IMG/VR virus record: IMGVR_UViG_3300037070_005559
Coordinates: 1 to 58,655 of that record
Direction: 5' to 3' (one strand)
Length of the DNA: 58,655 bases
Origin: a virus
This document shows positions 8,291-31,537 of this stretch, in pieces; position 1 is the stretch's first letter, and every line of letters begins with the position of its first letter. The translations under genes were made by a program, and so were the position numbers. The notes beneath the pieces are model-generated. The model saw only the letters and a program-made list of their open reading frames with translations. It was not told the DNA's origin and did not search any database.

Positions 8291-8301
8291 CTGGTTAGGC
8301 C

Positions 8302-8613: not shown

Positions 8614-8662
8614 TGGCCTAACAGTGTATTATGCAACACAAAACCGGAGTCAAGGAGCGCAA

Positions 8663-13635: not shown

Positions 13636-15570
13636 TTAGTTGGTTGTTACCGAATTTCCTGCAACAATCAGAATACCCTTGTCGATGATTCCCTGGCCAC
13701 TGGGTGCCGCGCTTGTCCCGCCACCGATGTTAATGCTCAGGCTGGTCACTCCGGAGGCGACGAGCCGGGCGAGAATGTGATTTACAGAGGCCCCATCCAG
13801 AGCCGCTCCGGCGATATTCACGCTCTGGCCATTGTCTGGGAAAATGATATTGGGAAACGACACAGACGACAGGTTGGGGCAGTTGCCGGCATCGAAATCC
13901 CCCGGAGAGCCCGGAGAAATCAGAGCGGGAAGGGAAATGGACGTGAGTGCGGCGTTGCTGAACAGGAACAGCTCGGTTCCAACACTGGTCAGGGCCGGCA
14001 TTGAAATCGTTGTCAGGGCCGTGTCGTTGATGCTCAGGTTAACTGCTATCGTTACCAGCAGCGGAACACTGAGCGTTGTAAGCAATAGATTGTTGGTTAT
14101 CATAAACCCGCCGCCTCCGTTTACAGCGGTCAGGGCCGGCAGGCTGATGGTTGTCAGAGCGGTGTTGATGAAATCTATCTCGCCCGCGACCGTGGCCAAG
14201 GATGTCAGCGTTGCGCTCGTCAAACTTGTATTGTTCAGAAACACAAGACTACCACCAACCGAGGAGAGAACCGGAGAGTTGAACGACACCATTGCGGTGT
14301 CGTTGCTGAATACAAAGTCACTGGCAACGCTGGTCAGTGCAGGGGTGCTCCATGCCAGAAGTGCTGGACACGCTGATGCGTCAATGAATCCGCCGACAGT
14401 TTGAAGATTCGTGGCAGTAATGGTGGTCAGATTCGGGCTGGGGTTAAAGTCCAGCACTCCGCCTATAGAGGATACTGAGGCGATATTGACAGCCGTATTG
14501 ATGTTGTTCTTACAAAAAAAGCTGGTGACAACCGCTGAGAGGACTGGAAAGTTTATCGTGCCTGCGAGGGTGGCGTTTCCGGTGATGGATATTGTGCCAC
14601 CACACTTCAACATCCTCGGAAGGTTCACAACAGTCAGGTTCGGACAGTTGGCGATCTGGAACGTCGTATATCCTATGACTACATTCGGAAACGATGCGGA
14701 CAGCAGCACGGCGTCGGCAATCTTGATATAATTGTTCAGCGCACAAGCCGGTGTGGTAAAAGCCGAACACGGCCCTGAGCACGCCCTCACTTCGTAGCAA
14801 TACTCGTCGTCATCAGCCATCACTGCCGGGTCGGTTATGGTTGTAGCACCACCGGCTACAGTTGAGAACAGGGTAAAGGCCGCTCCATTAATACTGCGCC
14901 AGACCTCGTTGGTTGTCGGCGCCGACCCCTGTGTCCATACGAGGATCGTATTTCCGTTCGTGCTCGAAAGATCAATCGTCAGGCTCAACGGCGCATCAGG
15001 CGCTATTGGAGTATCAGAAAAAAAAACACAGACAAGCGAGATCAGCACCGGCAACAGTAACCCCGCCGGTATACCGCACAGCAGGCACGAGGCGGCGCTC
15101 ATCAGCGATTGAGGATCACTCGATGCCCCGGCGATCACGGAGAAGATATAGATGAGGATGGCCAATTCCATTCCAGGTGTGATCCCACACGCAATGCAAT
15201 CAGCGTTGGCCGCCAGCGTCTGACTCGTGCAATCGGCGCCCGCTTGTTCACAAAACGATGATAGCACGATCGACCAATACATGCCCGGACTTATTCCACA
15301 GTCGAGGCATGAAGCGTCTGTCGCCAGCGCCTGCGCGTCCGCTGGAACGCCGGCTATTACGGTAGAGAGGTAGATGAGGACCGGCAGTCGAGCGCCTATC
15401 GGGATACACCGCTGGATGCACCGCGCATTGTTTTCCAGCGTTGTGGGATCGGTTGAGACTCCGGCTTGAACGGTCGCCAAGTAGATCAGGGCTGGAATTT
15501 GTCGACCGCGCGGGATGCAATGGTCAACGCACGTCGCCAGATTGATGAGTGTTTGAGGATCGCACGGCAT
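13636..15570 (-). CDS. Tail fibre / receptor-binding protein with N-terminal Cys-pair repeats and BspA-type leucine-rich repeats (644 aa)
   Basis: Five ~37-aa repeats (DPxxL...A.C..C.IP.G....LIYL....AG), followed by more than 10 roughly 22-24-aa repeats (LTTISLPALTAV..., LTSISLPALIS...). Confidence 0.65.
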   Translation of the reverse strand: MPCDPQTLINLATCVDHCIPRGRQIPALIYLATVQAGVSTDPTTLENNARCIQRCIPIGARLPVLIYLSTVIAGVPADAQALATDASCLDCGISPGMYWSIVLSSFCEQAGADCTSQTLAANADCIACGITPGMELAILIYIFSVIAGASSDPQSLMSAASCLLCGIPAGLLLPVLISLVCVFFSDTPIAPDAPLSLTIDLSSTNGNTILVWTQGSAPTTNEVWRSINGAAFTLFSTVAGGATTITDPAVMADDDEYCYEVRACSGPCSAFTTPACALNNYIKIADAVLLSASFPNVVIGYTTFQIANCPNLTVVNLPRMLKCGGTISITGNATLAGTINFPVLSAVVTSFFCKNNINTAVNIASVSSIGGVLDFNPSPNLTTITATNLQTVGGFIDASACPALLAWSTPALTSVASDFVFSNDTAMVSFNSPVLSSVGGSLVFLNNTSLTSATLTSLATVAGEIDFINTALTTISLPALTAVNGGGGFMITNNLLLTTLSVPLLVTIAVNLSINDTALTTISMPALTSVGTELFLFSNAALTSISLPALISPGSPGDFDAGNCPNLSSVSFPNIIFPDNGQSVNIAGAALDGASVNHILARLVASGVTSLSINIGGGTSAAPSGQGIIDKGILIVAGNSVTTN

Positions 15571-15857
15571 TACTCCTCCTCAGCGCCCATCATCTTGTCG
15601 AGTGCGGCATCCGCGCGCTCCATGCCTGACTCCTTATTTTCCCCGTGAGGCAGGTATTTGAATTCCACTTCGTCCTCGTACTCGTGGACGACCTCAAATT
15701 CGCATCGGGTTCCTGGGGTAGTTTCCTTGCCACCCAACGCGGATTTTGGAACCAGAAAGGTTTCGCCCGAGTCCTCGGATTTCTCATCCGAAGGCCCGGG
15801 GTTCTCTGATCCAGGATTCTCCGTCCCGGGATCGGGTTGGTCGTACATGTCAGCCAT
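15570..15857 (-). CDS. Acidic small protein (95 aa)
   Basis: ATG at 15857 (the track start at 16088 would overlap the capsid gene). Very D/E-rich. TAATG junction with the fibre gene. Confidence 0.55.
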   Translation of the reverse strand: MADMYDQPDPGTENPGSENPGPSDEKSEDSGETFLVPKSALGGKETTPGTRCEFEVVHEYEDEVEFKYLPHGENKESGMERADAALDKMMGAEEE

Positions 15858-15872
15858 ATTATTTGGTGAAAC

Positions 15873-15900
15873 CCCTCGTAGGATTTCAACCCTACGAGGG
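15873..15900 (-). terminator. Strong hairpin immediately downstream of the capsid gene
   Basis: 10-bp perfect stem ccctcgtagg (15873-15882) / cctacgaggg (15891-15900) with an 8-nt loop. Only a weak U-tract follows. Confidence 0.5.
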
Positions 15901-15913
15901 TGACACGAAACGC

Positions 15914-17536
15914 TTATTGAAGCCAGGGGATCGAAACTGTGGAGCACCCACCGACGAGCCGGATCTGAGTCGCATTCAGCACGCTCCAGGTTCCGAGTTC
16001 GTTGGCCGTGGCATTCAATTGCGCCACCAGAGTCGTGAGGTTGGCTGCACCACTGATCTCCGCGTGCGGGATCTCGTTGCCCATGCACTGGATGGAACTG
16101 GCCTCGACATCGTAGGTGGAGGTTGCGGGATTGAGCACAGGCGTGAACGACAGCGTATACGACGCCGCAGTGTTGGTGCAGTTCGTGGGATCGCTGCTGT
16201 AGACCTGAGCGGGGTATCCGGGGTCAGCCGCGCAGGGACTGATCTCGATGATGCACTGGGGCTCACCCTTGTGGAAGATGAGTTCCAGGAACTCGGTGTA
16301 CATCGGCCTCACCGCCAACTGAAAGTCGGCAATGAACTGGCCTTTGTTGCGCCGCTTGTTCTCGATCGCCCGTCCATTGATGTCCTCCCCAAGGTTGTCC
16401 ATCACGAACTGCCAGTTGCCCATGAAATTCCGTTTACCAAACGGCATCTCCGGACTGATCTGGGTCGTCTGCGCCACCAGCGACTGCATGGCTTTACGGT
16501 GCCAGATGTAGCTGAACCGGAATTGCGCGCGGTCGAACGATGGATTATCCACGTCCTTCAAGCCCGCTGCCCCACCCGCGCCACTCGACGGCACATTCAC
16601 GTACGGGAGCACGATCTGGTAGCGGTAGAGGCCACCAACCACACCGACAAAGTTGAAGCGCAGGTTGAACGGATCGACACGCGTGACGTAGTTGCCGATC
16701 GTTCCACTGAAGCCGTACTTCCAGTAGCGAGATGTGTCATCCCACTGCGTAAACCTCCAGTTGCCGGCAATCGAAGGCGTTCCGCCAATGCCCTGCTGCC
16801 CGCCCAGGTGATCGAGTTCCCACACGGTATCCATGTCGGACACCAACTCGATATTCGGCGGCATGTCTTTGAACGGCTGCTTGCCCAAGTAGCCCAACCG
16901 GATCAACGGCTGAAACCGCTGCTGCAACATCTGCGGCGTCAGCTTGAACACGTTCGCCGGGTTGGCATTGGTGTCGATGTAGATTTCGGCGTCGCCACTC
17001 TGCACCCACACGAAAGTGAATTCCGCAGCGGCCGTTCCAAAGTTTCGGTTGGCAATCCATTTCTTGCCCGCCAACTCCGCGGCTTTCTTCCGCATGTGGT
17101 TGGAGTAGATGGCAGACGTCGCCGGCTTCAGGATGTCGCTGATGATGTAGCGGAAGTTCTCCTTGGCCTTGGTGATGTGGATCAACTGGTCGAAGCACAG
17201 CAGCGGCGTCGCCCAACTGATTTCTTCCAGCGAATACACCAGCCGAGTCGCGCCCCAGGTAATCTGGTGCTCGGTCTTGTCGCATGGCGTGCCCAGACAA
17301 TTGCCGGCCACGGTTGGCACCCAACGCTTGGTGACGTTCGGCCAGACGTGGTTGAAGCGGTCGAGAGTGTGCTGGACGCCCGACGCGGCAGGGAATTCAC
17401 CGGTGTCGACGTGATTTATCCAACCATCAGTTGGTCTTACGTCCTCAAGTATGAGGTCATCGTAAAAAGGAAGCTGATCGACAAGGAGTTGCGTGAATTG
17501 GCACCCCGTAATTGTGCTGGTAGGACATGCCGGCAT
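15914..17536 (-). CDS. Major capsid protein (candidate) with a Ser/Thr-rich C-terminal extension
   Basis: A ~540-aa ORF downstream of portal and scaffold, followed by a strong hairpin. First ATG at 17536 (the track TTG start is at 17563). The call rests on position and size only. Confidence 0.6.
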   Translation of the reverse strand: MPACPTSTITGCQFTQLLVDQLPFYDDLILEDVRPTDGWINHVDTGEFPAASGVQHTLDRFNHVWPNVTKRWVPTVAGNCLGTPCDKTEHQITWGATRLVYSLEEISWATPLLCFDQLIHITKAKENFRYIISDILKPATSAIYSNHMRKKAAELAGKKWIANRNFGTAAAEFTFVWVQSGDAEIYIDTNANPANVFKLTPQMLQQRFQPLIRLGYLGKQPFKDMPPNIELVSDMDTVWELDHLGGQQGIGGTPSIAGNWRFTQWDDTSRYWKYGFSGTIGNYVTRVDPFNLRFNFVGVVGGLYRYQIVLPYVNVPSSGAGGAAGLKDVDNPSFDRAQFRFSYIWHRKAMQSLVAQTTQISPEMPFGKRNFMGNWQFVMDNLGEDINGRAIENKRRNKGQFIADFQLAVRPMYTEFLELIFHKGEPQCIIEISPCAADPGYPAQVYSSDPTNCTNTAASYTLSFTPVLNPATSTYDVEASSIQCMGNEIPHAEISGAANLTTLVAQLNATANELGTWSVLNATQIRLVGGCSTVSIPWLQ

Positions 17537-17743
17537 AAAATCGTTTTCGTTTTGCGGGAACAACGGTAGTTCCCACGGATTCCGACTTTATGTAGGGCGA
17601 CCTACAATCGCCTTTCAGCGACTCGCCGCGATCAGAACAGAAGATGTTCAGCTATCGGCGCTTTTACAACCTATGCGGATTGTTGCGCCTCGGGCCGTGC
17701 AGCGCCGAGATTTTTTGTCGCACTGATTGAAGCCTTACGCGAA

Positions 17744-17953
17744 TCAATCCAAACTGTCAAATACATTCTTTAAGGCGTCCCCCCTTCTCTGATCGAAAAA
17801 CTTACGAAGAACTGCCCACTTTAGCGGAGTTTGTCTTGGTGCTAAAGCCCAACATTCGGAACACCACACCCATGACGGAGATCCGCCCTTGGGGTGCAGG
17901 TGAGGTTCAAGTGGAACGCCAACCCGATGGCAGGCAATGCACCTATTTCCCAT
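17744..17953 (-). CDS. Small zinc-ribbon protein (69 aa)
   Basis: CIACH...CSEC motif. Confidence 0.5.
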   Translation of the reverse strand: MGNRCIACHRVGVPLEPHLHPKGGSPSWVWCSECWALAPRQTPLKWAVLRKFFDQRRGDALKNVFDSLD

Positions 17954-18003
17954 CTTACCCTTTGCCTTTATCCTCGCAACTCTTTCGGATTCTATTTTTC
18001 GGG

Positions 18004-18032
18004 AGTATGCACATTACAAAGGTGGTTGTCAA
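18004..18032 (-). promoter_or_regulatory. Sigma-70-like promoter downstream of the accessory island
   Basis: Minus strand reads TTGACA (18032-18027), a 17-nt spacer, then CATACT (18009-18004). Lies about 45 nt upstream of the ATG at 17953. Confidence 0.4.
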
Positions 18033-18055
18033 TAACCCGGCAGCCCATGGTCGGC

Positions 18056-18973
18056 TCACTTTTGGAGTTGCTTGGTTTCGGAAACGGCGGCCAGCACCAT
18101 GCTTGTTATCGAAGGCGGAAGTGCGCGTTTCTTTTCTTGGCTCTCAAGATAAATCGGCAATTTGATTTTCAAATACACATTGCGCATCCATTGGCGATAC
18201 TCCGGCAGAGCGGCTTCTGGATACGCCCACGGGTGCTGAGGGTTGGATCTGGCCTGAGGAAAATACTCGGGGTAATTGTGTTCGTATCGAATGCGCGCTC
18301 CATGCACCTCATCAAATCCGTTATCTTCCCAATGCTTCCCCCAGTGAATTCTAACGCTACCGTCAGGGACGGTATGTTCGTCAACGGGCACCCCGCCTTG
18401 AATGAGCGATACTATGATGTCCGCCATTTCTTTGAAGATGCTGAAATAACCAACAGGGACCTTATGATAATTAAGCGACACTCTGTCGTGAAATTTTTTC
18501 CAACACTCGGGGATTTTGTTCGTTGGATCGTAGCCAACCTGAACATAAATAAACGCCGTCAAAGACGACTTGGTTAGCAACCTGAAATTCTTTAATGCAG
18601 TTTCGCGCGGAGGTTTTACCTCAAAGGCATAATATTCTAGGATCGCAGTGCAAACGACTGCCGGATATGCAAAATGGGTTGAACCGTCTACCTCAAGCCG
18701 CATGAATAGCGGGCCATCATATTCGGCGTCGTGGAGAATATTGGATATGGCCCTGCCGCGCGGTTTTGATTGTTCGGACTCCCAGTCATTTGTTAGGTCT
18801 TGGATTACAGAATGGACGACTCCGCACATTGCTGCCAATCCACGGCCCGTCAGATAAGCCGTGCCGTCGCTCATCACTCCCATTTGAACGCCATCAATCT
18901 CAACCTGACGAGCGATGGTCAGATTAAGCATTGTCTGTGCTTTTGGGGCGGCGGGTAAATCCTTTGGTTTCAT
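18056..18973 (-). CDS. P63C-domain-like phage protein (305 aa)
   Basis: ATG at 18973 with aagga upstream (the track GTG start is at 19018). The YPAVVCTAILEYYAF...HWGKHW...YPEYFPQ...WAYPE...YL pattern is recalled as P63C-like. Not verified. Confidence 0.45.
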   Translation of the reverse strand: MKPKDLPAAPKAQTMLNLTIARQVEIDGVQMGVMSDGTAYLTGRGLAAMCGVVHSVIQDLTNDWESEQSKPRGRAISNILHDAEYDGPLFMRLEVDGSTHFAYPAVVCTAILEYYAFEVKPPRETALKNFRLLTKSSLTAFIYVQVGYDPTNKIPECWKKFHDRVSLNYHKVPVGYFSIFKEMADIIVSLIQGGVPVDEHTVPDGSVRIHWGKHWEDNGFDEVHGARIRYEHNYPEYFPQARSNPQHPWAYPEAALPEYRQWMRNVYLKIKLPIYLESQEKKRALPPSITSMVLAAVSETKQLQK

Positions 18974-19025
18974 TTGTAATATCCTATCCTTCAACGTAGT
19001 TACCCGGCGGGTAGCCACGCGCCAG

Positions 19026-19169
19026 TCACTTCGTCCGCTTAGTGCGCTTCGGCGTGAGTGGTTCCGGCTTCACCCTGATGGCCCGGCGCATCGCTGCGTC
19101 AAAGTCCATCGCCAGCACCAAGCCTCGTTCCTGGGGCCGCTTGGTTTTACCTTTGGGGGCCATTGCCAT
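19026..19169 (-). CDS. Small basic protein (47 aa; below the track cutoff)
   Basis: Hand translation: MAMAPKGKTKRPQERGLVLAMDFDAAMRRAIRVKPEPLTPKRTKRTK. Starts 2 nt after the stop of the toxin-like gene. Confidence 0.45.
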   Translation of the reverse strand: MAMAPKGKTKRPQERGLVLAMDFDAAMRRAIRVKPEPLTPKRTKRTK

Positions 19170-19171
19170 AA

Positions 19172-19450
19172 TTATTCAGCGTCCAAGGAATAATTCACAA
19201 CCGAAAGCAATATCACGTGTGATGCATTGAACGTGTAGAATATTCCGAGTTCTCGGCCTTTCGGAACGTCGCGCGAGAATACACACCAGACGGATGTGCC
19301 CGGCACATTGCGGCCACATTTGGGATTCCTCGCCAATACCCAGATAGCCCCCTCTATCAATTCATCTGCCCGCCGAGCGCTGGGTTCAATTTTTTTCAGC
19401 TCGGCTTCAAATTTATGCTCGCAAACTACAGTCCTTAAGGGCGCTTGCAT
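19172..19450 (-). CDS. RelE/ParE-like toxin candidate (92 aa)
   Basis: Small protein directly downstream of the Panacea-domain gene and overlapping it. The C-terminal IFYTFNASHVILLSV pattern is typical of RelE/ParE toxins. Confidence 0.5.
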   Translation of the reverse strand: MQAPLRTVVCEHKFEAELKKIEPSARRADELIEGAIWVLARNPKCGRNVPGTSVWCVFSRDVPKGRELGIFYTFNASHVILLSVVNYSLDAE

Positions 19451-20036
19451 CTGCTTTTAGGGCAGCAGCAGCAATGGATTCCAATGTCGCCCCGTGCTTT
19501 AACTCTTCTTGTCTCAACTGTCGCGTGGACACAAGAGCTACCGGATACGGAATGGTTTCTTCATTGCTGGCCAATTGCCATCCGATGAAGTCGTGAGACT
19601 CTTCGCTAATCTCCGATGCTGTTTTGCCTCGGTGAGCCTCAACAACCTTGTCCATCATATCGATCTCATGTGCCGAAAACAAATCTAAATTCGGTTTCCG
19701 AAGTCCGACGGTGCGATTCTGGGTGAACCCAAAATATTCCGCTCGATCAATTCTTATGTCGCCGCTCCTTATCATCTGCTTGCTCACGGGGAGCCATCTT
19801 CGCGGCGCTGGTCCATTGCCAAGTCTAAAATAACTTTGGCCGGTGATGGCTTGTCCGAAATTGAGATATGCTAAAAAGTCGCAATAAAACAAAAGCTTGT
19901 TTTGCTTTGTCGCGCCAAATGTTTCATCCCCGCGACACTTCTCGGCGAGATAGAGCACAGCCTCACGCAGTTTTGCATCCTGCACTTCACTCTTTAGCGG
20001 CTGATGTATCTTTCGTAGCGCCATAACTCGTTCCAC
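19413..20036 (-). CDS. Panacea (DUF4065 / SocA-like) domain antitoxin
   Basis: KQNKLLFYCDFLAYLNFGQAITGQSYFRLGNGPAP matches the KLLYyaD...G..iTG..Y....GPv signature. GTG at 20036 or ATG at 20024. Confidence 0.7.
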   Translation of the reverse strand: MERVMALRKIHQPLKSEVQDAKLREAVLYLAEKCRGDETFGATKQNKLLFYCDFLAYLNFGQAITGQSYFRLGNGPAPRRWLPVSKQMIRSGDIRIDRAEYFGFTQNRTVGLRKPNLDLFSAHEIDMMDKVVEAHRGKTASEISEESHDFIGWQLASNEETIPYPVALVSTRQLRQEELKHGATLESIAAAALKADASALKDCSLRA

Positions 20037-20055
20037 GGCACGCTACCACAGCAAC

Positions 20056-20070
20056 ATTGTTGCCGCAACA
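20056..20070. promoter_or_regulatory. 15-bp perfect palindrome upstream of the antitoxin gene (candidate operator)
   Basis: TTGTTGC-c-GCAACAA, read directly, 20-34 nt upstream of the GTG at 20036. Confidence 0.45.
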
Positions 20071-20141
20071 AGGAGTTATTGGGGTTTTCCACCACTTTTC
20101 CGGCCCCTTTTAATCAGTCAATCATAGAAGTTTGCCTTGAT

Positions 20142-21152
20142 TCAGGCAGACTGCTTATACGTGAGCACCTTTCCCTCGATCTTGCCCAACCCGGCAATCA
20201 TTCGCTCGCCGTCCGTGACGTGGCGATTATTCCAGCGGAACGTGAACTCATTGCAGTAGCGGAACAGGTGCTCTTTGCTGACGTGATGGAACGAACCCGC
20301 CAGCCCGCGCTTCAATAACGAGAAGAAACTTTCCGCCGTGTTCACATGGCTAACGGTTCCATCCGCGTTGTGCTTCGCGTATTGCTTCTTGCGATGGACA
20401 ACGGAACCGTGACTCTTGAACGCCCGGCGAATCGGACGATACAGGTGTGACTCGTCAGTGTTGAATGTGGCCTGACGGGATACATTGTCGAAAACGAAGT
20501 CCCGGAGATTCTTCGGGGTGACAGTCGCCAGCACCTTAGTGCGAACCTGGCCCCCGCGTTCCACGAGCGCGAGAATGGGCGACTTTGAGCTACCCTTGCG
20601 ATATCCCTTTTCCTTCAAGTTGCCCTTTGAGTCGCGGTTCGGGTTGGGGCCGTAATAGGTTTCGTCTGCCTCTACCGTGCCCGTCAGTGGCTTGTTGAAC
20701 TGTGGGTCACTCATGGCGTGCCGAATCTTGTGCATCATCATCCAAGCCGTGCGGTAGCTGCCGAAGCCTAACGCCCGTTGAATCTGCTTTGCGCTCACGC
20801 CCTTCTTGGCGTTGCAAATGAGATACCACGCGACGAGCCACTTCCAGAGCGGGATTTTGCTGTCGGTGAAAATGGTTCCAACCATCACAGAGAATTGCTT
20901 GTCGCACGCTCCACACTCATAGAGACCGTGGCGAATGCTCTTGGCCGTGTTGCCTTCGATCTTCCAGACCTTTGATTGCTCCGCATTCTTGCAGTGGGGG
21001 CAAACCGGGCCATTGGGCCAGCGGATAGCCTCAAGGTATTCACGGCCCTTGCGGTCGGGGTCGGTCAATTCCTCGCTGCTGTCCGGGGCGAAGCGGGACA
21101 TGATCTGAGTAAGGCTTAACTCCTTTGGGGTTGGCAACAAGTCGCTTTTCAT
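20142..21152 (-). CDS. IS1595-family (ISXO2-like) DDE transposase
   Basis: N-terminal zinc ribbon RWPNGPVCPHC...YECGACDKQFSVMVGTIF. Also SYRTAWMMMHKIRHAM, VEADETYYG, HVNTAESFFSLLKRG..GSFHHVSKEHLFRYCNEFTFRWNNR. ATG at 21152. Confidence 0.85.
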   Translation of the reverse strand: MKSDLLPTPKELSLTQIMSRFAPDSSEELTDPDRKGREYLEAIRWPNGPVCPHCKNAEQSKVWKIEGNTAKSIRHGLYECGACDKQFSVMVGTIFTDSKIPLWKWLVAWYLICNAKKGVSAKQIQRALGFGSYRTAWMMMHKIRHAMSDPQFNKPLTGTVEADETYYGPNPNRDSKGNLKEKGYRKGSSKSPILALVERGGQVRTKVLATVTPKNLRDFVFDNVSRQATFNTDESHLYRPIRRAFKSHGSVVHRKKQYAKHNADGTVSHVNTAESFFSLLKRGLAGSFHHVSKEHLFRYCNEFTFRWNNRHVTDGERMIAGLGKIEGKVLTYKQSA

Positions 21153-21186
21153 GGGCACAGACTACCATGGGGCTAACCTTTGTCAA
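21153..21186 (-). promoter_or_regulatory. Promoter-like element for a leaderless transposase transcript
   Basis: Minus strand reads TTGACA-aaggttagccccatgg-TAGTCT-gtgccc-ATG(21152). The -35 box overlaps the HNH stop codon. Confidence 0.45.
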
Positions 21187-21587
21187 GTGCATACTCCCGC
21201 TATTTTTGATCTTACGTGACCACGCAGCCTTTTGAGCACGCTATCAGTAAAAATGATTCCGTGTTTTTGAGCGATGTGGATTTTGTGATGGCATTTACGG
21301 CAAAGGGTGATGCAGTGTCTTGCCTGAGTTTCCCAAACGTTCTTTGGGTATTCCTTGTGATGAACGTCGTTTGATAAATTGAACGCATCACATAGAAAGC
21401 ATTTCGCACCATCGCGAGCCAGAACCTCCGCCCGCACGGTCTGCCACTGCTCAGACTTCAGGTATCCGAACCTATAAGCGTGTTTACCTGCTATGCTCAC
21501 ACCAACGTCAACATCGGCTTCCGACAGCACTCGCAAGCGCATCTCGACGACCACGCGTGATGAAACGCCCGACATCTGCGGCACCAA
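21183..21587 (-). CDS. HNH-type endonuclease-like protein (134 aa)
   Basis: WQTVRAEVLARDGAKCFLCD...VHHKEY...LCRKCHHKIH. Confidence 0.65.
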   Translation of the reverse strand: MVPQMSGVSSRVVVEMRLRVLSEADVDVGVSIAGKHAYRFGYLKSEQWQTVRAEVLARDGAKCFLCDAFNLSNDVHHKEYPKNVWETQARHCITLCRKCHHKIHIAQKHGIIFTDSVLKRLRGHVRSKIAGVCT

Positions 21588-21651
21588 AGCAACTGGCGCC
21601 CTTGCCGGCGAAGTACATCAATCCAGCCGATGGGTTGTGAAACAGGTTCCA

Positions 21652-21849
21652 TTACCGGCTTGGTGGGAGGTGAATCACCGGCTCATCTGTTGGCGCAGGC
21701 GGTGGCGGAGGCTGTTCGCTTTTCATCAGCTTCAGCATGTTATCCGCCTGGGAGTGGAGAACGGTGAATATGAACGGCCCTTGAACGCCGGCCTTTAACG
21801 CCGATCGAATGGCACCCACGATGTGGCTTTGGAATTCTTCGGGGCTCAT
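21652..21849 (-). CDS. Hypothetical protein (65 aa)
   Basis: ATGA overlap with the scaffold stop. Proline run near the C-terminus. Confidence 0.5.
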   Translation of the reverse strand: MSPEEFQSHIVGAIRSALKAGVQGPFIFTVLHSQADNMLKLMKSEQPPPPPAPTDEPVIHLPPSR

Positions 21850-23087
21850 CGTCCGCCCGCCAATCTATCCACAGCCGCATCAAACCCAGCCAGCCCCTTT
21901 GGAGCGGCCTCTCCGCCTTCCTTGCGCCCGCCCTTCCCATCAAGGTTCGGCTCCGATTTCTCGTACTCCTCCAATTTGGCCTCCAATTCGGCAACGCGCG
22001 CCTTTGTTTGTTTCAGCCGGTGATTGAGCAACCCGGCGGCTGCCGCACGATTGCGGATCGCCGAATACAGATTAGCCTTGGCTTGGGCAGTCATCTTCGA
22101 CGTGACCTCCTCCAAAAATGCGTCGTCGGCCATCTTCATCCCCTTTTCCAGAATGGCCTTTCCTTCATCGTCGCCATCATCGGCGTTGAACCAATCTTTT
22201 AGGACGGGATTTTCCAGCGCGGATTTGACCGCCGATTGGTACATGCCATTGAACTCCTTTTGCTGAGCCTTTGTAGTCTCGGTCTTCTGGTTCTCCCTCT
22301 CAAGTCCTTTGGCCCGGAAATCATCAACAGCTTTGACGCGCGCGGTATTCAACTCATTGACCTTCTCCCTCAGGTTGAGCACCAGCGGCGCCTTCTCTCC
22401 AAAAGTCTTGTTCGCGAATTCCCAAGCCGATTCATCGTCGGCGATCCCCATCAGGTTGTCGAAGTCGGCGGCAGTGCCCTGGCGGACGCTCCCGGCTTTG
22501 ATGACATCGCCGGTGGCTGGGTCTTTCTGATCGGGTTCCCTGATCTTCAATCCCTCGACGCGCTTGCGGCCACTTTGGTAGGCTTCGAGGAATGGGGCTT
22601 CATATTTGTCCTTGTACTCCTGGCTGCGCGTGTAGTCGGCAAACTTGAGCTCGTTCTCCAATTCCTCGCGCGTCTTCCCCCAATTCTCGCGCTCCTCCAG
22701 CAGCTTTTTCTTCTCCGGGTCCTCCGGCGGGGTCTTGAGCTTGGTTTCCAACTCCTGGATTTTGGAACGCAACGTCCGATTTTCAGCCTCCACCCGGTCT
22801 TTGGCCTCGCGGAGTGACGAGGCTTTGTTGGGGTCTTTCGGCTGGGCCTTGTCGTCCTTCAGTTCCTTGGGCTGGGCCTTTGGCGCTGCGGGTTCTACCT
22901 TGTCCTTCGGCTCTTTTGGCGCGACTGGCTCCTTGGCCGCGGGCTCTTTCGGTGGCTCATCTTCCTTCGCGGGCTCGACGCCGAACAATTCGTTGATCGC
23001 GTTGTCCGCGCTGGTCGTGGCCGGCCCGGCGGGGATTGCGGCTGGGTCGACGGGTGCGGCTGGTGGGGCTATGGCTTCGGCTGGCAT
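21846..23087 (-). CDS. Scaffolding protein (candidate; 413 aa)
   Basis: Highly charged, K/E/A/P-rich, coiled-coil composition. Located after the portal and before the capsid gene. Confidence 0.6.
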   Translation of the reverse strand: MPAEAIAPPAAPVDPAAIPAGPATTSADNAINELFGVEPAKEDEPPKEPAAKEPVAPKEPKDKVEPAAPKAQPKELKDDKAQPKDPNKASSLREAKDRVEAENRTLRSKIQELETKLKTPPEDPEKKKLLEERENWGKTREELENELKFADYTRSQEYKDKYEAPFLEAYQSGRKRVEGLKIREPDQKDPATGDVIKAGSVRQGTAADFDNLMGIADDESAWEFANKTFGEKAPLVLNLREKVNELNTARVKAVDDFRAKGLERENQKTETTKAQQKEFNGMYQSAVKSALENPVLKDWFNADDGDDEGKAILEKGMKMADDAFLEEVTSKMTAQAKANLYSAIRNRAAAAGLLNHRLKQTKARVAELEAKLEEYEKSEPNLDGKGGRKEGGEAAPKGLAGFDAAVDRLAGGR

Positions 23088-23091
23088 AAAT

Positions 23092-23367
23092 TTATTTCAG
23101 AATGTCCTCAATCCACGAGGCAACTTCTTTTGGAAAGGCGCTCCCGTTTCCTTCGGAAAACGAGATCATGTCATCCATCACCTGCGCCCAATTCAGTATG
23201 CACTCCGGAGAGCGATCGAAAATTCTTTCATCCAGAGCAACACGCAGAGTGGAGCCCATTCTGAATCGGTTCAACTTCAAGACCGTTGCCGCTTTCTGCA
23301 ACTGGTCTTTTGTATAGGTGAAGGTTGTGTGATCCACAGCTATCGGTGATGGGTTTTCGCCTTCCAT
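23092..23367 (-). CDS. Hypothetical protein (91 aa)
   Basis: ORF in the head module. Confidence 0.6.
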   Translation of the reverse strand: MEGENPSPIAVDHTTFTYTKDQLQKAATVLKLNRFRMGSTLRVALDERIFDRSPECILNWAQVMDDMISFSEGNGSAFPKEVASWIEDILK

Positions 23368-23370
23368 AAA

Positions 23371-23637
23371 TCAAGTCTGATGCAAATTATCCGGATCGGT
23401 CTTGGCCTTCTTCGGCTCGGTTACCAACGCGATGGATCGCAGCCGACGCAGGTATTCCACAGCGCCCTGACGCATCCACTCGTTGGCCGCTGAAGTGCCC
23501 ATGTCCGATGCGGGCTTAAAGCTCTCCTGAAATTCCAGCATCGCGCAATCAGCCGCCGCCTGAAATTGATCGCTGTCGGCCAAGTCAGTCCAGTTTTTAG
23601 CGAACGGGGATTTTTGAAACCTTTCTCTGTGCGTCAT
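23371..23637 (-). CDS. Hypothetical protein (88 aa)
   Basis: ATG at 23637, 30 nt downstream of a TTGACA. Confidence 0.6.
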   Translation of the reverse strand: MTHRERFQKSPFAKNWTDLADSDQFQAAADCAMLEFQESFKPASDMGTSAANEWMRQGAVEYLRRLRSIALVTEPKKAKTDPDNLHQT

Positions 23638-23673
23638 TTCCCAAGTTAATAACTAACACCCGTCAGGTGTCAA
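23638..23673 (-). promoter_or_regulatory. Promoter-like element after the portal gene
   Basis: Minus strand reads TTGACA (23673-23668, overlapping the portal stop)-cctgacgggtgttagt-TATTAA-cttgggaa-ATG(23637). Confidence 0.4.
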
Positions 23674-26063
23674 CCTTCTTTCGGTGCCTCAGCAGCTTTA
23701 CGCTGTTTTTCAAGGTCGATCTCGGCTAATCCACGAGCCTTCTCCAATTCAAGTGCCGTACGCTGGGCCTCCGCCTGCATCTCCATCTGATGCTTCTGCT
23801 GATTCTGTTCGGATGTCATCTCGAATTGAACCTGACGCTGGGCGGTTTTTTCGGCGTGTGAAGCGCGTCCGGCTTCGATCTTCGCCTGACTCGCCGCCTG
23901 CTGTGCCTGAATCTTGGCCATCGCCTCGGGGTCCATATCGTTGCCATTCTGCTTCGCCTGAGCCTCCTGCATTCGTTGAGCAAACGCACGAACCTCGTTC
24001 ATCAGCATTTTCAAATGGTCGGACAGGGATTTCACCAGCTCCTTCGTGGTGTTGTCCGGCGCCTCGCCCCGCGCGTGCGGTTGCTGCGCGTCTTGAGCAA
24101 GAATCGCAATGTGATTGGCGATGCCGTTGCCCTTGATTGGCGCACCTTGAACGGTCTGACCCGCCAGGTTCTGCATACCCACCAATTCCTGTGGGGTACA
24201 CACCCCACCACGTTGGGTGATTTCCTGAACCTTCGCGCCTAACGCGACCAGCATGGCTTCGCTGTATTCGCTGTGATTGACTCCCTCTTTCAAACCCATC
24301 TGAGTACCAGCCAGCAACACACCAGCCGAAAGTTGGGCATCATGCACGCTGTCACTCACATGTGGTTCTTCAGGCACGAGATCCTGCGCCAGCGAATAGT
24401 CATCCAAATCCACCGCCAGCTTCATCCGTAAAACCTTTCGCTGCGCCTGCGGGTCCAACTTGGTGTAGACGGTCATCGCCCGATCAACCATTGCCGATTG
24501 CAGCATTTTGTTTCCGGCGCCCAACACGCGTGTGGGTTGAATATCCCAGCAGGCACTGTTGAGAGCTTCTTCCGGGATACCGCGCTTCAGCATGTTGACC
24601 CGGAATCGGCGGACGTCGGCGTCTCGGCTGTTCGGCAGGCAGAAGCGCCGACAGATTTCCATGTACTGAAATTTCTTGTTCGTATACGCCTGGTTGGTCA
24701 TGCCACTTACCATTGCCGCCGTCTTATTCACCTTGGCCATCGTACGCGTCGCCGTCTCGTTGGCGCTTCCGAAATCAAGGTCTTCCGTATAACTACTGCT
24801 GCTGTCGGAGATCGATTGGCGGTTTATTTGCAGGCACATTTCAGCCAGATTCGCCTCCACCTTCCAACGCTCCTCCTGTCTTACGAATTGGATGCCGTCG
24901 GGAATTGGTGTCTTATCCGTGAGATCGATCTTCAGCGCGCGTTCGGCATCGGGCATGTTGGTCACGCGATAGTACTGCATCAGGCTTTCAAACGTGGCCT
25001 CGGTGAACTTGCATTGCAGCCGGTTTTGAAGATGGCAGACGGCGTAGAGTAGGAATCCCAGTGACCGAACAGAGTGATATTTGAAAGGCGCCTTCGATGA
25101 ACAATTGGCAATCTGAAAATGGATTAGCTCCGAGAGTTTGTCCGCGACCTTGCGCTTGCCACTGTCGTAGAGGAACGCGCTTTTGGTGGCGCCGTATTTG
25201 CCGTCTATTTTTGAGATCGTGGGTGATGCTCCTCCAGTGAGTCCCGGCTGCCCCCAGGCGTCGAGGATTATCTTTTTTCTCCAACCACTCTGTTTGCCAC
25301 TGTCGTCCCACCAGTAGAATTGGAAGGTGTCGATCGTGGGTATGTTGTCGCCCGCGTAGAGCCCGCCATCTTGCTTGATCCGGTCATCCATCTTCTCCGG
25401 ACTCCAGATGTCGGCGAATGATCCACTCATTAGACGCTGGGCCTCACTATCCACCCATTTGATCGCGGCTTTTACCGACGGCATGTTCCATCCTGGGTCA
25501 ACGTTCGGCCCAGAGGTAATCCGTGAAAGTTCGAACGCCGTGTATTTCTGATAACACGCCCAGAACGGGAGGTTGGTCATGGACGTCAGCGTGTCACCGG
25601 GGATGAGTACATCCTCGATCCCTCGGTCAACCGCACACCACGAGTATTTGTCGGTCCAAACCGTCGGCCCAATCCCGTGAGATACATTCATCGAGTTGAT
25701 ACCCTTTTGGGTATCAACGTAGTTCGATGAGTTTTTTATCAGCTTATTGATCTCACGTGTGATCTGGTGGCTCCATTCCTGACGCTTCCATTTTGGACCG
25801 TAATCGAGTTTGACTGTAAAAAGCGGATCAGGGAGGAGGAGGGCGTTATCCAACTGCCGGCGCGCGTCGTGGACTACGTTTGGTCCGTTCTCGGGGAAGT
25901 TGACGTTGACCGACAGATTGTTTTGAGAGACTTCGGCGTCGGTGTAGGTCGGCCAGCCGTCCATTAGCCGGTCAATGCGAGCGCGGTTGCGGCCCCGCCA
26001 GTAGTCACTAAGCCGCATTTGGGAAACCAATTGTTCTACCGTCTCAGGTGAGTCGAAACGCAC
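23670..26063 (-). CDS. Portal protein (candidate; 797 aa) with a Q/A/E-rich coiled-coil C-terminus
   Basis: The call rests on size and on position upstream of scaffold and capsid. GTG start at 26063; start uncertain. Confidence 0.6.
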   Translation of the reverse strand: MRFDSPETVEQLVSQMRLSDYWRGRNRARIDRLMDGWPTYTDAEVSQNNLSVNVNFPENGPNVVHDARRQLDNALLLPDPLFTVKLDYGPKWKRQEWSHQITREINKLIKNSSNYVDTQKGINSMNVSHGIGPTVWTDKYSWCAVDRGIEDVLIPGDTLTSMTNLPFWACYQKYTAFELSRITSGPNVDPGWNMPSVKAAIKWVDSEAQRLMSGSFADIWSPEKMDDRIKQDGGLYAGDNIPTIDTFQFYWWDDSGKQSGWRKKIILDAWGQPGLTGGASPTISKIDGKYGATKSAFLYDSGKRKVADKLSELIHFQIANCSSKAPFKYHSVRSLGFLLYAVCHLQNRLQCKFTEATFESLMQYYRVTNMPDAERALKIDLTDKTPIPDGIQFVRQEERWKVEANLAEMCLQINRQSISDSSSSYTEDLDFGSANETATRTMAKVNKTAAMVSGMTNQAYTNKKFQYMEICRRFCLPNSRDADVRRFRVNMLKRGIPEEALNSACWDIQPTRVLGAGNKMLQSAMVDRAMTVYTKLDPQAQRKVLRMKLAVDLDDYSLAQDLVPEEPHVSDSVHDAQLSAGVLLAGTQMGLKEGVNHSEYSEAMLVALGAKVQEITQRGGVCTPQELVGMQNLAGQTVQGAPIKGNGIANHIAILAQDAQQPHARGEAPDNTTKELVKSLSDHLKMLMNEVRAFAQRMQEAQAKQNGNDMDPEAMAKIQAQQAASQAKIEAGRASHAEKTAQRQVQFEMTSEQNQQKHQMEMQAEAQRTALELEKARGLAEIDLEKQRKAAEAPKEG

Positions 26064-26362: not shown

Positions 26363-26902
26363 TTACCCATGCGGCGCGTAGAGCTTCGGCACTACCTCAT
26401 ACGGCACATAAAGTGGGTGCTCTGGAAATCCGTGCTTGGTTGTACGAAGGCAATGAGTCTTCACCCCGATTCCATTCAGCCACTGCAATACCGTCAGATC
26501 GCGATTCCTGTGCCTGCCGTTTACTCCCCAAGCCGCAATGACTATTGACGCTTGGGAGGAGCGCTGCAAGAGATGGTGATGGTTATCGCATCCTTCTGGC
26601 TCTGGATGCCGCCGCATGGATGCCGGAGATGTATCTCGAACCGCAAACAGGTTCGTCATGCAGAGCGCGCCGTATCCCCACCGCTTTGAAAATCCGATGC
26701 ACTTCCGGATTGTGGGATCATCCTTGGTTTCGTCGGCAGTGCTTGGATTGAGTCCGATGAACATCGCATAGCCATCGACTTTTGGAAGGTCGTCGCTGCA
26801 TCCGGTAATCGAGTCCACATCCCATTCCCGCCACAGCGTGTATCTATAAACGCGGTCAGGCGAAAGAATCGTCTGCCGACAACTTGTTGGCTCCGGATTC
26901 AC
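26363..26902 (-). CDS. DUF1643-family protein (179 aa)
   Basis: RVYRYTLWREW...MFIGLNPSTADETKDDPTIRKCIGFSKRWGYGALCMTNLFAVRDTSP...AAWG...TKHGFPEHPLY. Confidence 0.75.
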   Translation of the reverse strand: MNPEPTSCRQTILSPDRVYRYTLWREWDVDSITGCSDDLPKVDGYAMFIGLNPSTADETKDDPTIRKCIGFSKRWGYGALCMTNLFAVRDTSPASMRRHPEPEGCDNHHHLLQRSSQASIVIAAWGVNGRHRNRDLTVLQWLNGIGVKTHCLRTTKHGFPEHPLYVPYEVVPKLYAPHG

Positions 26903-28134
26903 AACCCCACAATCTCCACCCGCGGAACCGGGATAATGAACTTCCCACCCGCCTCAAGATACGGCCGCATTTTGTCCAGAATTTCCTCCCTGTAATTCCA
27001 AGCGAAAAGGATAACGTAATCCGGCATCCGTTTCATCAACTCCTCCTCCGCCACGACTGGAATGCTCGTGCCCGGAACCATTCGCCCAATCTTCTGTTCC
27101 GTGGTATCGGTCACGAACTCCAACATATTGTCCAACCCACAGGCGTTGATCCACACCGTGCCTTTGGCAGATGCTCCAAATCCAGCCACGCGATTACCCT
27201 CGGCCCGCAGCGAGATCACCATAGAACGCAAGTGGTGGATGAGGTCATTCGACTTGTTTTTGAAATCGTGCCACGCCTGTAATCCGGTGGTGGCCTCGGT
27301 TTCGAGAGCCACAAACTCATCGAAACTTTTGTCCGGTGGAATCGTGCTGTCATCGTGGCGCAACATCACCACGATTGACCCGCCGTGGATCGGATAGCGT
27401 TTAACTTTGTGGATATGCCAGTTGGTGTCTCCCAACAGCCAGTCCAGGGCTTTGATTGTGAGGTAGCTCAGGTGCTCTGAATAAATTTGGTCGAACTCGA
27501 CGCGGGAGAGTGTGTCCAACACGTATGGGACTTCGATGCAGACTAATGTGTGCTCGTCAGAAACGATGTCCAGCGCAGCGATGAACCCCTTCCAATCGTC
27601 GACGTGGCAGAAGCAGTGGCGGGCGATGATGGTTCGGGCATTTGCGGAATCGCGTAAGAAGGCTTTTGCATTTGCGGCCATGGCTTCACTCCACGTCCCG
27701 CATATCACATTAACCATACGCCCAAATGCTGAGTCGCAAAGATTGGGTGCTGGGTCTACTCCCACTACCCCATTCACAAAGCCGTTATTTTCAAGAAATT
27801 CTAAAAAGTGCCCATCGTTCGAACCAATCTCGATCACCGAACCAACTCCGTTTTCCTCCTTCATGTCGGCACACAGCTGCTTGAAGTGGTCAGCCATTGT
27901 CTGGCTGCGGCTGGTCGTGTACGGGTACGAGCCGTAAAGTATTTCCGGTCGCACCACCACGCTTAGTTGGGCCAGCGTGCAGCGTGGGCACAGGAGTATT
28001 TTCAGCGGCGCGTAGCCAGCGTGTTCGTCGTCCGGCCGTCGGAAGTCATTCGCAAGAGCAAAAATACCCATATCAAAGACTTCGGTGAGAGCACCCCATT
28101 GACACGCTCGGCAGACTTTGTGTTCAGTGTACAT
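26899..28134 (-). CDS. NDP-hexose C-methyltransferase-like enzyme (TylCIII type; 411 aa)
   Basis: N-terminal 4-Cys motif (CRAC...CPRC), SAM motif VIEIGSNDGHFLEFL, and a C-terminal domain with AGFGASAKG. Confidence 0.75.
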   Translation of the reverse strand: MYTEHKVCRACQWGALTEVFDMGIFALANDFRRPDDEHAGYAPLKILLCPRCTLAQLSVVVRPEILYGSYPYTTSRSQTMADHFKQLCADMKEENGVGSVIEIGSNDGHFLEFLENNGFVNGVVGVDPAPNLCDSAFGRMVNVICGTWSEAMAANAKAFLRDSANARTIIARHCFCHVDDWKGFIAALDIVSDEHTLVCIEVPYVLDTLSRVEFDQIYSEHLSYLTIKALDWLLGDTNWHIHKVKRYPIHGGSIVVMLRHDDSTIPPDKSFDEFVALETEATTGLQAWHDFKNKSNDLIHHLRSMVISLRAEGNRVAGFGASAKGTVWINACGLDNMLEFVTDTTEQKIGRMVPGTSIPVVAEEELMKRMPDYVILFAWNYREEILDKMRPYLEAGGKFIIPVPRVEIVGL

Positions 28135-28618
28135 AATGCTTTAGTGGGGGAGTCGTCAGGGCCTTCTCCAAAGACCAGCCTCGCTCTAGTCGCTGTTTCA
28201 CTAGCTTTCCGTCACCGCCTAAGCGCCTACACCAATCCCTCTCGACCATCCTTATGCCGTTCAATTCGTGCCATACATTCTTGCTGGTATTTCTATTTTG
28301 CTGTGCTGGTGTGGCCCAGATACAATTTTTTGGAGTGTAGCCTTTCGAGCTATCCTTCCTTTCTAGCGTCAGTCCATGACTCCAGGTGGGACCCATGTCT
28401 TTTAAAAAATTAGGAAACGAGTACAGCCATCGGTCGCAGACTTTTATGCCCTTGCCTCCGTATATCTTGTAGTCTCTTGATTTTCGCCTCCAACTAGCAT
28501 GGCAGCACCTTCCAATCATATTGGACCAGCAGTTATAGAGCGGATGTCTGTTAGGACTCGTTTTGCCGTATCCATGACGGTTATACGGCCTCTTTTTGGA
28601 TCTACCTTTATTCTTCAT
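28124..28618 (-). CDS. Homing-endonuclease-associated DNA-binding-like protein, paralog 1 (164 aa)
   Basis: HPLYNCWSNMIGRC...YKIYGGKGIKVCDRW..FPNFLKDMGP...LERKDSSKGYTPKNCIWAT. ATG at 28618 in an ATGA overlap. Paralog of 32469..33248. Confidence 0.55.
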   Translation of the reverse strand: MKNKGRSKKRPYNRHGYGKTSPNRHPLYNCWSNMIGRCCHASWRRKSRDYKIYGGKGIKVCDRWLYSFPNFLKDMGPTWSHGLTLERKDSSKGYTPKNCIWATPAQQNRNTSKNVWHELNGIRMVERDWCRRLGGDGKLVKQRLERGWSLEKALTTPPLKHYVH

Positions 28619-29445
28619 GGCCTCCAATAAGAAATCGCCTCATCAACCGCGTCCGTCACATGCCGAACCTTCACCCCGGCGTTGACCAGCTTCTGCACCG
28701 ACATCCTTGATCCGGTCGACGTGTAATTCGTTTCCACTTTTGGAATGGTTTCAATGATACCCGCCGACGCCATCATCGTCACAACCTCTCGCGCGGTGAT
28801 CTGGCCAACGCAACAACAATTGTAAATTCCGTATGGCGCACGATTCTTCCACAACTCCAACGCGTGGCGCACCATATCCCGGCGATGCGTCAACGAATTC
28901 AGGTGATTCCACACCGATGTAAATCCCGCCAGCTTCGTCAAATAATTACGCGGGCTATTGAATTCGTCGAACGGAAGCCGTATACGCAGGATATAGCTGT
29001 CGGGGTATTGCCCAACGAAGTTCTCAGCCAGCAGCTTTGATCCAACGTAGGTTCCGCAATAGCCGTCGAAGCCTCGGATTGGGGGATCAGTTTCATCGTA
29101 CTCGCGCAGCTCGTTGTAGAGGCAGGCTGTGGAGAGGTGCATCAGCGGGACAGACGCGCTCTCGCACGCGTTAGCCAACGTGGCAGGAAATATTGCGTTG
29201 GCCCTCAGTGTCTCACCCTTGTGATTGTCGCAGTTTGAGACTGAACCACCGGCCAAGTACGCCGCACAATTGATGACCAGAGTGGGGTTGGCGTCGGAAA
29301 TCAGTTGGCGCAGCTTTCCAAACTGCGTGTAATCTAATTCGGAACGGCGTACAGCGTGGAAGGCCATTCCGGTTGCGCGCATCTCGGATTGGAAGGCGGT
29401 GCCGAGGTAGCCTGAGCCGCCCAGAATAAGCAGTCCTGTTTTCAT
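28615..29445 (-). CDS. NAD(P)-dependent sugar epimerase/reductase (RmlD-like extended SDR; 276 aa)
   Basis: Rossmann motif LILGGSGYLG. Catalytic YVGSK (YxxxK). Confidence 0.75.
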   Translation of the reverse strand: MKTGLLILGGSGYLGTAFQSEMRATGMAFHAVRRSELDYTQFGKLRQLISDANPTLVINCAAYLAGGSVSNCDNHKGETLRANAIFPATLANACESASVPLMHLSTACLYNELREYDETDPPIRGFDGYCGTYVGSKLLAENFVGQYPDSYILRIRLPFDEFNSPRNYLTKLAGFTSVWNHLNSLTHRRDMVRHALELWKNRAPYGIYNCCCVGQITAREVVTMMASAGIIETIPKVETNYTSTGSRMSVQKLVNAGVKVRHVTDAVDEAISYWRP

Positions 29446-31536: not shown

Positions 31537-31537
31537 G

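Follow-up and report, generated by a model that had tools for sequence, protein, structure and literature searches.

The window analysed here, a viral genome of 58,655 nucleotides (IMG/VR virus record IMGVR_UViG_3300037070_005559), carries at positions 18000–21199 a stretch that is identified from its sequence as a single 3,200-bp IS1595-family cargo transposon, holding a transposase gene and four further genes (Table 1). Read from its transposase end, the element comprises the left inverted repeat (IRL), the transposase gene, the gene of a Panacea-domain antitoxin, that of a candidate toxin with a RelE/ParE fold, that of a 47-aa basic peptide, an aba-like site, bstA and the right inverted repeat (IRR), with all open reading frames (ORFs) of the cassette on the minus strand. 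The four genes are closely packed, the antitoxin gene overlapping the 92-aa toxin ORF by 38 nt, the 47-aa ORF starting 2 nt past the toxin stop codon and the ~305-aa gene following after a gap of 52 nt, while no convincing terminator is seen between them. The gene order, the overlap and the 2-nt spacing had been described by an earlier reading made from the sequence alone (the sequence-only reading), which omitted the IS1595 transposase just upstream, the inverted repeats, the target duplication and the aba-like repeats.

Table 1. Positions of the transposon, its genes and neighbours in the window, and of four related elements on other contigs
Feature	Position	Strand	Remarks
Target-site duplication, copy 1	17992–17999	plus	CTATTTTT; same 8-mer directly outside both inverted repeats
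IRR, cargo-distal	18000–18023	plus	CGGGAGTATGCACATTACAAAGGT; pairs with 21176–21199 at 22/24
bstA homologue	18056–18973	minus	305 aa; abortive-infection replication inhibitor family
aba-like element (candidate)	18949–19013	minus	two direct copies of TACCCGCCG (9 bp), at −40 and +16 from the bstA ATG; start-to-start distance 56 bp
47-aa basic peptide gene	19026–19169	minus	core MDFDAAMRRAIRVKP plus K/R tail
Toxin candidate (PanT)	19172–19450	minus	92 aa; RelE/ParE fold by model
Panacea-domain antitoxin (PanA)	19413–20024	minus	203 aa from likely ATG at 20024; longest ORF 19413–20036, GTG at 20036
Promoter-like element	20040–20071	minus	TTGCGG (20068–20063), 17 nt, TAGCGT (20045–20040); overlapped by palindrome 20057–20071
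IS1595-family transposase	20142–21152	minus	336 aa from ATG; Zn ribbon and DDE domain
IRL, transposase-proximal	21176–21199	plus	contains conserved TTGACA
Target-site duplication, copy 2	21200–21207	plus	CTATTTTT
549-aa protein gene	15914–17563	minus
69-aa ORF	17744–17953	minus	CxxC...CxxC
Probable 3' remainder of HNH gene	17744–17991	minus	includes 69-aa ORF; in frame after excision
HNH ORF	21183–21587	minus	134 aa; interrupted 5' part 21208–21587; present stop codon inside IRL
65-aa ORF	21652–21849	minus
Scaffold-like gene	21846–23087	minus	413 aa; Ala/Glu/Lys-rich
Related element	L047		duplication TGATATTG; antitoxin, toxin, peptide, AbiD
Related element	L054:4632–9474		duplication TCCCTCCA; mixed cargo including a DCD/dUTPase-like gene and a MazG-like gene
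Related element	L056:5953–9022		duplication CCACTGGT; methyltransferase and EcoO109I-type restriction enzyme
Related element	L059:5953–9497		duplication GCAGCAAT; DUF3800, DUF6941, small ORFs

Boundaries and relatives of the transposon

The element is delimited by 24-nt terminal inverted repeats (92% complementary), which in a repeat search bracket exactly the transposase gene and the four genes, and by a target duplication that is perfect on both flanks and whose 8 bp are the typical length for the IS1595 family. The transposase matches the NCBIfam profile NF033547 over positions 2–215 of 215 with 197 bits (cutoff 75), as well as PF12760 and PF12762, and has relatives at 58–82% identity, of which those with a named source are labelled Verrucomicrobiota, Methylacidiphilales or Opitutaceae. 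The GC content of the transposon (0.520) lies slightly under that of the rest of the genome (0.544). As inverted repeats of IS1595 type and an 8-bp duplication delimit the cassette, it is regarded as transposon cargo, and the view that it evolved within the phage is not supported.

The transposon apparently interrupted an HNH endonuclease gene, as judged from the reading frames on its two sides. The 134-aa ORF matches PHROG HNH families (E down to 1e-11), and in-silico removal of positions 18000–21207 joins it, in frame and open, to the 69-aa ORF, the predicted uninterrupted site reading ...AGATCAAAAATAGAATCCGAAAG.... In tblastn of the reconstituted HNH protein against phages, the alignment is confined to residues ≤119, leaving the C-terminal continuation without homologue support. 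The insertion lies between the scaffold-like gene and the gene of the 549-aa protein, whose homologues occupy the capsid position in related phages, and this placement confirms the one given earlier. The gap between scaffold and capsid genes is roughly 0.3–1 kb in five related phages vs 4.3 kb here, and the cassette genes are absent from that locus in all five; megablast of positions 15000–24000 against GenBank phages gave no match. The reading adopted here, that the cassette is the cargo of one IS1595 transposon which is inserted in an HNH gene and brings with it a toxin–antitoxin (TA) pair, a basic peptide gene and bstA with its aba-like site, is given a probability of about 0.78.

The phage genome is complete at ~58.55 kb, the ends of the window (1–102 and 58554–58655) overlapping by ~102 bp, and five assemblies of it from four samples and three pipelines are ~100% identical, the others being circular permutations of the window. 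Repeated mobile elements are often misassembled in metagenomes, and a bacterial transposon could in principle have been wrongly joined into the phage contig; such a chimera is so improbable as to be nearly negligible, as the junctions are identical in all five independent assemblies, phage sequence stands on both sides, the duplication is perfect and the reading frame of the target gene is restored.

Four further elements with the same inverted-repeat consensus were found, each with its own perfect 8-bp duplication and different cargo (Table 1). L047 is a 38.9-kb phage contig whose large terminase is 36% identical to that of the window phage, and the carrier of this sister element is a distantly related phage. 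It holds the closest homologue of the window Panacea protein (67–72% identical), a transposase and a toxin that are 66% and 65% identical to their counterparts, the same 38-nt antitoxin–toxin overlap, and a homologue of the basic peptide of 39 aa followed by AbiD (PADLOC, 5.6e-68) where the window has BstA. The two elements are 67% identical in DNA across the first 1.95 kb and unrelated beyond. The elements on L054, L056 and L059 reside in bacterial chromosomes and have transposases at 58–62% identity. Since PADLOC found no match in the cargoes of L054 and L059, these are not called defence systems; anti-phage or TA cargo (BstA, AbiD, type II restriction-modification) is present in three of the five elements. 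From these sequences, the element probably originated in bacterial chromosomes, and one sub-lineage is probably now carried by phage genomes with exchangeable abortive-infection cargo.

An ORF of 63–72 aa directly follows the transposase gene in the chromosomal elements (L054:5796–5987, L056:7092–7307 and L059:7053–7271, minus strand), its slot being taken by the Panacea gene in the window and in L047. This ORF has no Pfam match, and its copies in L054 and L056 share the motif G-K-N-K/R-S-E-V-A-Y-x-I-x-E-W. In L047, a T5orf172/GIY-YIG-like ORF (8166–8675, minus strand) has its domain inside the transposon and its called start outside the distal repeat, and is probably a cargo gene whose start was mis-called, or else a fusion made by the insertion. 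Targeting of homing-endonuclease genes by the transposon was considered and rejected, as the T5orf172 domain of L047 lies inside the element and thus belongs to the cargo and not to the target.

The inverted-repeat pattern of the element has no match in viral and metagenome contigs. A 17-base core of the inverted repeats has 12 matches in genome contigs, which were rejected as copies of the element and ascribed to chance, as none of the 12 has a transposase nearby. A scan of positions 17400–21700 with Rfam returned nothing above noise. At 18004–18032 on the minus strand, partly within the IRR and facing the capsid gene, stands a promoter-like TTGACA-17 nt-CATACT (10/12). It has no conserved counterpart in L047 and could make up for polar effects that the insertion has on the expression of late genes.

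bstA and its aba-like site

The 305-aa protein encoded by the last gene had been labelled P63C-like, a label that is not supported, as Pfam-A scans of its 320-aa (E ≤ 0.1) and 305-aa (E ≤ 0.01) versions gave no match to any family in the Pfam copy used; it is replaced by BstA. The protein matches the BstA profile of PADLOC over positions 4–290 of 292 (E = 2.8e-117) and PHROG 6287 ("BstA abortive infection system, replication inhibitor"; E = 1.5e-93), is 44% identical to BstA of Salmonella phage BTP1, retains every one of the 52 columns that are invariant in an alignment of 10 BstA sequences, and is, on this homology, a full-length BstA. Members of the family comprise a KilA-N-like region at the N-terminus and a BstA C-terminal domain. 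BstA_C is among the precomputed Pfam hits on record for the window protein; the BstA profile found nothing among PDB sequences.

In BTP1, aba is a 63-bp DNA element composed of 29 bp upstream and 34 bp of the coding sequence of bstA, its terminal CCCGCC direct repeats are each essential, and aba in high copy suppresses BstA, by which a replicating carrier is spared (Owen et al. 2021; PMC8585504). The TACCCGCCG pair at the start of the window bstA is, by analogy, a candidate aba-type self-immunity site cognate to the window BstA. The arrangement CCCGCC-N45-55-CCCGCC occurs once in the window (0.07 expected), and in nine of ten distinct BstA loci the start is straddled by a direct repeat of at least 5 nt, spaced 55–58 bp; the empirical null probability of such a repeat at this position and spacing is 0.11 for at least 5 nt and 0.001 for 9 nt.

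The window locus shares with BstA–aba of BTP1 full-length homology, the CCCGCC core and the 56-bp spacing astride the start codon. It differs in that the repeats are 9 bp long, lie 12 bp further upstream with respect to the ATG and enclose unrelated sequence, bstA closes the gene series of an IS1595 transposon located in the structural module and does not follow a cI repressor, and the likely host phylum is another one, the relatives of the insertion sequence (IS) being from Verrucomicrobiota. BstA homologues have been reported from alpha-, beta- and gammaproteobacteria, 21% of them being prophage-independent (PMC8585504). In four reference phages, bstA lies directly behind the gene at the cI position, which is annotated as CI repressor in three of them; the genes upstream of the window bstA are those of peptide, toxin and antitoxin within the transposon, and no prophage repressor adjoins it.

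Start-codon repeats 56–57 bp apart are seen across diverse BstA loci (L001–L004, L023–L031); the main text of PMC8585504 describes them for BTP1 alone. Examples are CCCGCCA (BTP1 and three IMG/VR contigs), CCGCCAG (Pseudomonas phage D14H), TGGTCA (Klebsiella phage RCIP0114) and GGGCA (others), and this variability of the repeat sequence among loci fits "cognate" aba elements.

The antitoxin–toxin pair and the basic peptide

The Panacea/DUF4065 domain named by the sequence-only reading is borne out, as the protein matches PF13274 with 49.9 bits (cutoff 25.7; E = 7e-13), and 138 homologues of it were found. A search of PDB sequences with this protein returned nothing, a confident AlphaFold model has no significant fold match in PDB (best E = 0.2, to winged-helix regulators), and no helix-turn-helix domain is detected by Pfam, the Panacea domain being the sole match.

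The RelE/ParE-like assignment of the 92-aa protein stands for its predicted fold but not for its sequence, which scores 18 bits against Pfam ParE_toxin, below the cutoff of 23. An exhaustive phmmer search collected 267 representatives of its family at E ≤ 1e-3, nearly all of 85–100 aa, while a word-based homology search returned the protein itself only; seven of 60 family members match ParE_toxin at E ≤ 0.01, and the family profile found nothing significant among PDB sequences. With the phmmer alignment as input, AlphaFold gave a beta-alpha-alpha-beta-beta-beta model with a predicted local distance difference test score (pLDDT) of 94.1 and a predicted template-modelling score (pTM) of 0.83. 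In Foldseek against PDB, the best matches of this model are all toxins of the RelE/ParE superfamily, namely RelE2 (3g5o), ParE (5ceg), ParE2 (5cw7), HigB2, YoeB and RelE, with template-modelling scores of up to 0.73; the top matches 3g5o_C, 5ceg_B and 5cw7 have scores of 0.64–0.73 and E = 1e-4 to 7e-4. A RelE/ParE fold is thereby supported by modelling, and the protein is a toxin candidate.

The antitoxin–toxin pair was found in five independent contexts (the window, L047, L048–51, L063 and L064) with toxin homologues 44–65% identical, and the chromosomal pairs (L048–51, L063 and L064) stand in three unrelated contexts without transposase and without peptide. Since it recurs across contexts, the pair has the PanA–PanT architecture, and from its sequence we infer an autonomous type II module. 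ParE-type toxins are known among Panacea pairs, which often adjoin transposases (Kurata et al. 2022; PMC8832971). As in the pairs of that study, the Panacea gene here lies directly upstream of, and overlaps, a small toxin-like gene, and the pair is conserved across taxa; unlike them, the window toxin family falls below the Pfam ParE threshold. The family also lacks the conserved basic and aromatic positions of the Pfam ParE/RelE profile, so that either gyrase or ribosome-bound mRNA may be the target. A type II pair beside a transposition gene is likewise seen in Tn3-family transposons with integral TA modules, as these are cited in PMC8832971 (Lima-Mendez et al. 2020), from which the present element differs by its DDE transposase of IS1595 type without resolvase or res site and by the type of its antitoxin.

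The sequence-only reading had placed a 15-bp perfect palindrome upstream of the Panacea gene at 20056–20070 and linked it to the palindromic operators of autoregulated type II TA operons. The palindrome (TTGTTGCCGCAACAA) exists and occurs once in the window, but at 20057–20071, and an operator role is possible but unsupported, since perfect 7-1-7 palindromes are at chance frequency in the window (5 vs 3.8 ± 2.1 expected), the right arm is missing in L047, the only close relative of the locus, and no DNA-binding domain is detected in the antitoxin. Conserved in both the window and L047 are the promoter-like hexamers at 20040–20071, the distance between them and, downstream, the block TAGCGTGCCGTGGAACG. 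The non-coding sequence TTGCT(G/A)TG(G/T)TAGCGTGCCGTGGAACG upstream of the Panacea ATG (20024–20056, minus strand; L047:5960–6000) is conserved between the two transposons above the level of coding sequences and could represent either a binding site or the −10 region of a promoter together with its leader. Inside the toxin gene, at 19294–19308, lies another perfect 7-1-7 palindrome (ATGTGCCCGGCACAT), which is probably due to chance.

The overlap of the palindrome with the −35 of a conserved promoter-like element, together with genes that are tightly packed, share a strand and are separated by no convincing terminator, would suit a four-gene TA/abortive-infection operon that evolved in the phage and is autoregulated by its antitoxin. 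Such an operon is very improbable, as the repeats and the duplication mark the genes as transposon cargo, the palindrome is neither conserved nor above chance, the antitoxin shows no DNA-binding domain by Pfam and no significant fold match, AbiD replaces BstA in the sister element of L047, and the BstA system of BTP1 consists of a single gene that is sufficient by itself (PMC8585504). A survey for co-occurrence found the quartet nowhere else; the units that recur are the antitoxin with the toxin, the transposase with antitoxin, toxin and peptide, and the peptide in each element. The earlier notion of a TA or abortive-infection-style module thus holds in that a TA pair and a gene of an abortive-infection family (BstA) are both present, but not in that they form one joint TA operon extended by two genes.

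The 47-aa ORF is considered a real gene, as invariant bases over five copies of the peptide number 9, 10 and 2 of 16 at codon positions 1, 2 and 3, a pattern of selection on the protein. Its motif (F-D-x-x-M-R-R/L-x-x-x-V-K-P followed by a Lys/Arg tail) is present in all five IS1595 cargo elements and was found neither in 57 other collected loci (L001–L062) nor in the rest of the window. In L056 and L059 the peptide ends ~40 bp from the distal repeat, the L056 copy being the C-terminal end of the ORF that encodes the restriction enzyme. On this distribution, the peptide is a signature gene of the transposon lineage and not a TA component; its composition and position allow the guess that it serves the element as a small cofactor or regulator that binds nucleic acids.

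A third TA component, acting as regulator or toxin partner in the manner of the three-gene paaR-paaA-parE systems, is an improbable identity for the peptide. Panacea and ParE systems made up of three genes are known (PMC8832971), the peptide gene starts directly after the toxin here and overlaps the toxin stop in L047, and in L059 it follows a pair of 79-aa and 90-aa genes without Pfam or PADLOC match; the peptide occurs, however, without an adjacent toxin in L054 and L056, is absent downstream of the three chromosomal antitoxin–toxin pairs (L048 by tblastn, E up to 0.5; L063 and L064 by motif regular expression), and is distributed with the transposon rather than with the TA pair. The pair in L059 (8779–9287) lies directly upstream of the peptide motif, and its 90-aa product, ending in ...VVFYISGNTVFTIDIGNHDIYR, is RelE/ParE-like by eye; if this pair is real, the order of toxin and then peptide would recur with an unrelated antitoxin.

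Possible role and the carrier phage

In the proposed mechanism, the transposase would move the whole unit, the TA pair would most likely stabilise the element in bacterial replicons or act as a further abortive-infection switch, and the 47-aa peptide would be part of the transposon backbone. BstA would block DNA replication of phages without cognate aba, while aba repeats amplified on the replicating carrier would titrate BstA, as a result of which the transposon-bearing phage would be immune and co-infecting or superinfecting competitors would be aborted. A phage-adapted IS1595 sub-lineage, with Panacea TA pair and basic peptide as backbone, a distal slot exchanging BstA–aba and AbiD, and BstA–aba as inter-phage weapon, is proposed only tentatively.

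The element may instead be a recent neutral or mildly harmful hitch-hiker, whose BstA and TA cargo matter in bacterial replicons only, which is possible though somewhat doubtful. The perfect duplication, the intact repeats, the target gene that is in frame after excision, the lower GC content of the transposon, a target HNH gene that looks dispensable and a clonal phage are all in keeping with a recent arrival of this kind. A sub-lineage with transposase, antitoxin, toxin, peptide and one abortive-infection gene is, on the other side, carried by two distantly related phages, and so far by phages only, and these two independent insertions argue mildly for adaptation; self-immunity of the aba type is precisely what a carrier that replicates requires, and assembly of four different samples gave the identical genome.

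Several points weigh against the reading of the cassette as the cargo of a mobile IS1595 transposon serving its phage. The empty-site junction GATCAAAAATAGAATCCGAAAG has no match in viral and metagenome contigs, and the viral, metagenome and genome collections hold no second copy of the exact element and only diverged sisters, so that its mobility is deduced from the duplication, the inverted repeats and the existence of sister elements. The phage sampled is one clone. As aba elements are cognate-specific, the CCCGCC core in common with BTP1 is no proof of function here, and as the characterised BstA genes all lie behind a prophage repressor (PMC8585504), what BstA would do in a phage that is apparently non-temperate is a matter of speculation. 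Inferred throughout are the toxicity of the toxin candidate and its neutralisation, the activity of BstA, immunity through aba and transposition. Most proteins of this genome match no family, which limits accordingly the negative result on lysogeny genes: integrase, recombinase and repressor are absent from the Pfam hits on record for genes called genome-wide, and a PHROG scan of 10 large ORFs found none of the three while detecting a primase/helicase and RecT. The non-temperate lifestyle ascribed to the phage by the sequence-only reading agrees with the lack of a detected integrase in these Pfam and PHROG scans, but is plausible only, as judged from its gene content.

BstA–aba, Panacea TA pairs, RelE/ParE toxins and cargo-bearing IS1595 elements are already known kinds. 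Passenger genes have been described in the "transporter IS" (tIS) of several IS families including IS1595 (Siguier, Gagnevin & Chandler 2009, as cited in PMC7986276). The present element has in common with IS1595 tIS a transposase with Zn ribbon and DDE domain (NF033547), short terminal inverted repeats, an 8-bp duplication and cargo between the transposase gene and the distal repeat; its lineage is set apart by anti-phage or TA cargo in three of five elements, by a small basic peptide whose gene is conserved close to the distal end and by two members in phage genomes. New are bstA and aba as transposon cargo, their residence in a phage structural module away from a repressor, the exchangeable abortive-infection slot (BstA or AbiD) and the lineage-specific peptide; a literature search found no paper in which IS1595 is linked with anti-phage cargo, nor one in which BstA is linked with transposons or with virulent phages.

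BstA has hitherto been presented as a prophage defence tied to the repressor locus, while the bstA–aba unit is here the passenger of a 3.2-kb transposon in a block of late genes. The movement of aba along with bstA would give a simple account of how any replicon may carry the gene without being killed, and the locus offers a natural system in which to ask whether BstA serves competition between phages. As AbiD or a restriction-modification system is found in sister elements, transposons of the IS1595 type may be an overlooked route for the spread of defence genes, including into phages. If the phage-adapted lineage is real, BstA biology would extend past prophage defence, and minimal transposons would shuttle defence genes between bacteria and virulent phages. 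The 47-aa peptide and the 56–57-bp repeat architecture at bstA starts could also aid annotation.

Most structural proteins of the phage belong to no PHROG or Pfam family. Its accessory genes (26363–36000, 54383–55000 and neighbours) make an unusual set, with those of an epimerase, methyltransferases, a radical-SAM-like protein, DUF1643, DUF5672, Cpn10 and DnaJ homologues and a second HNH endonuclease.

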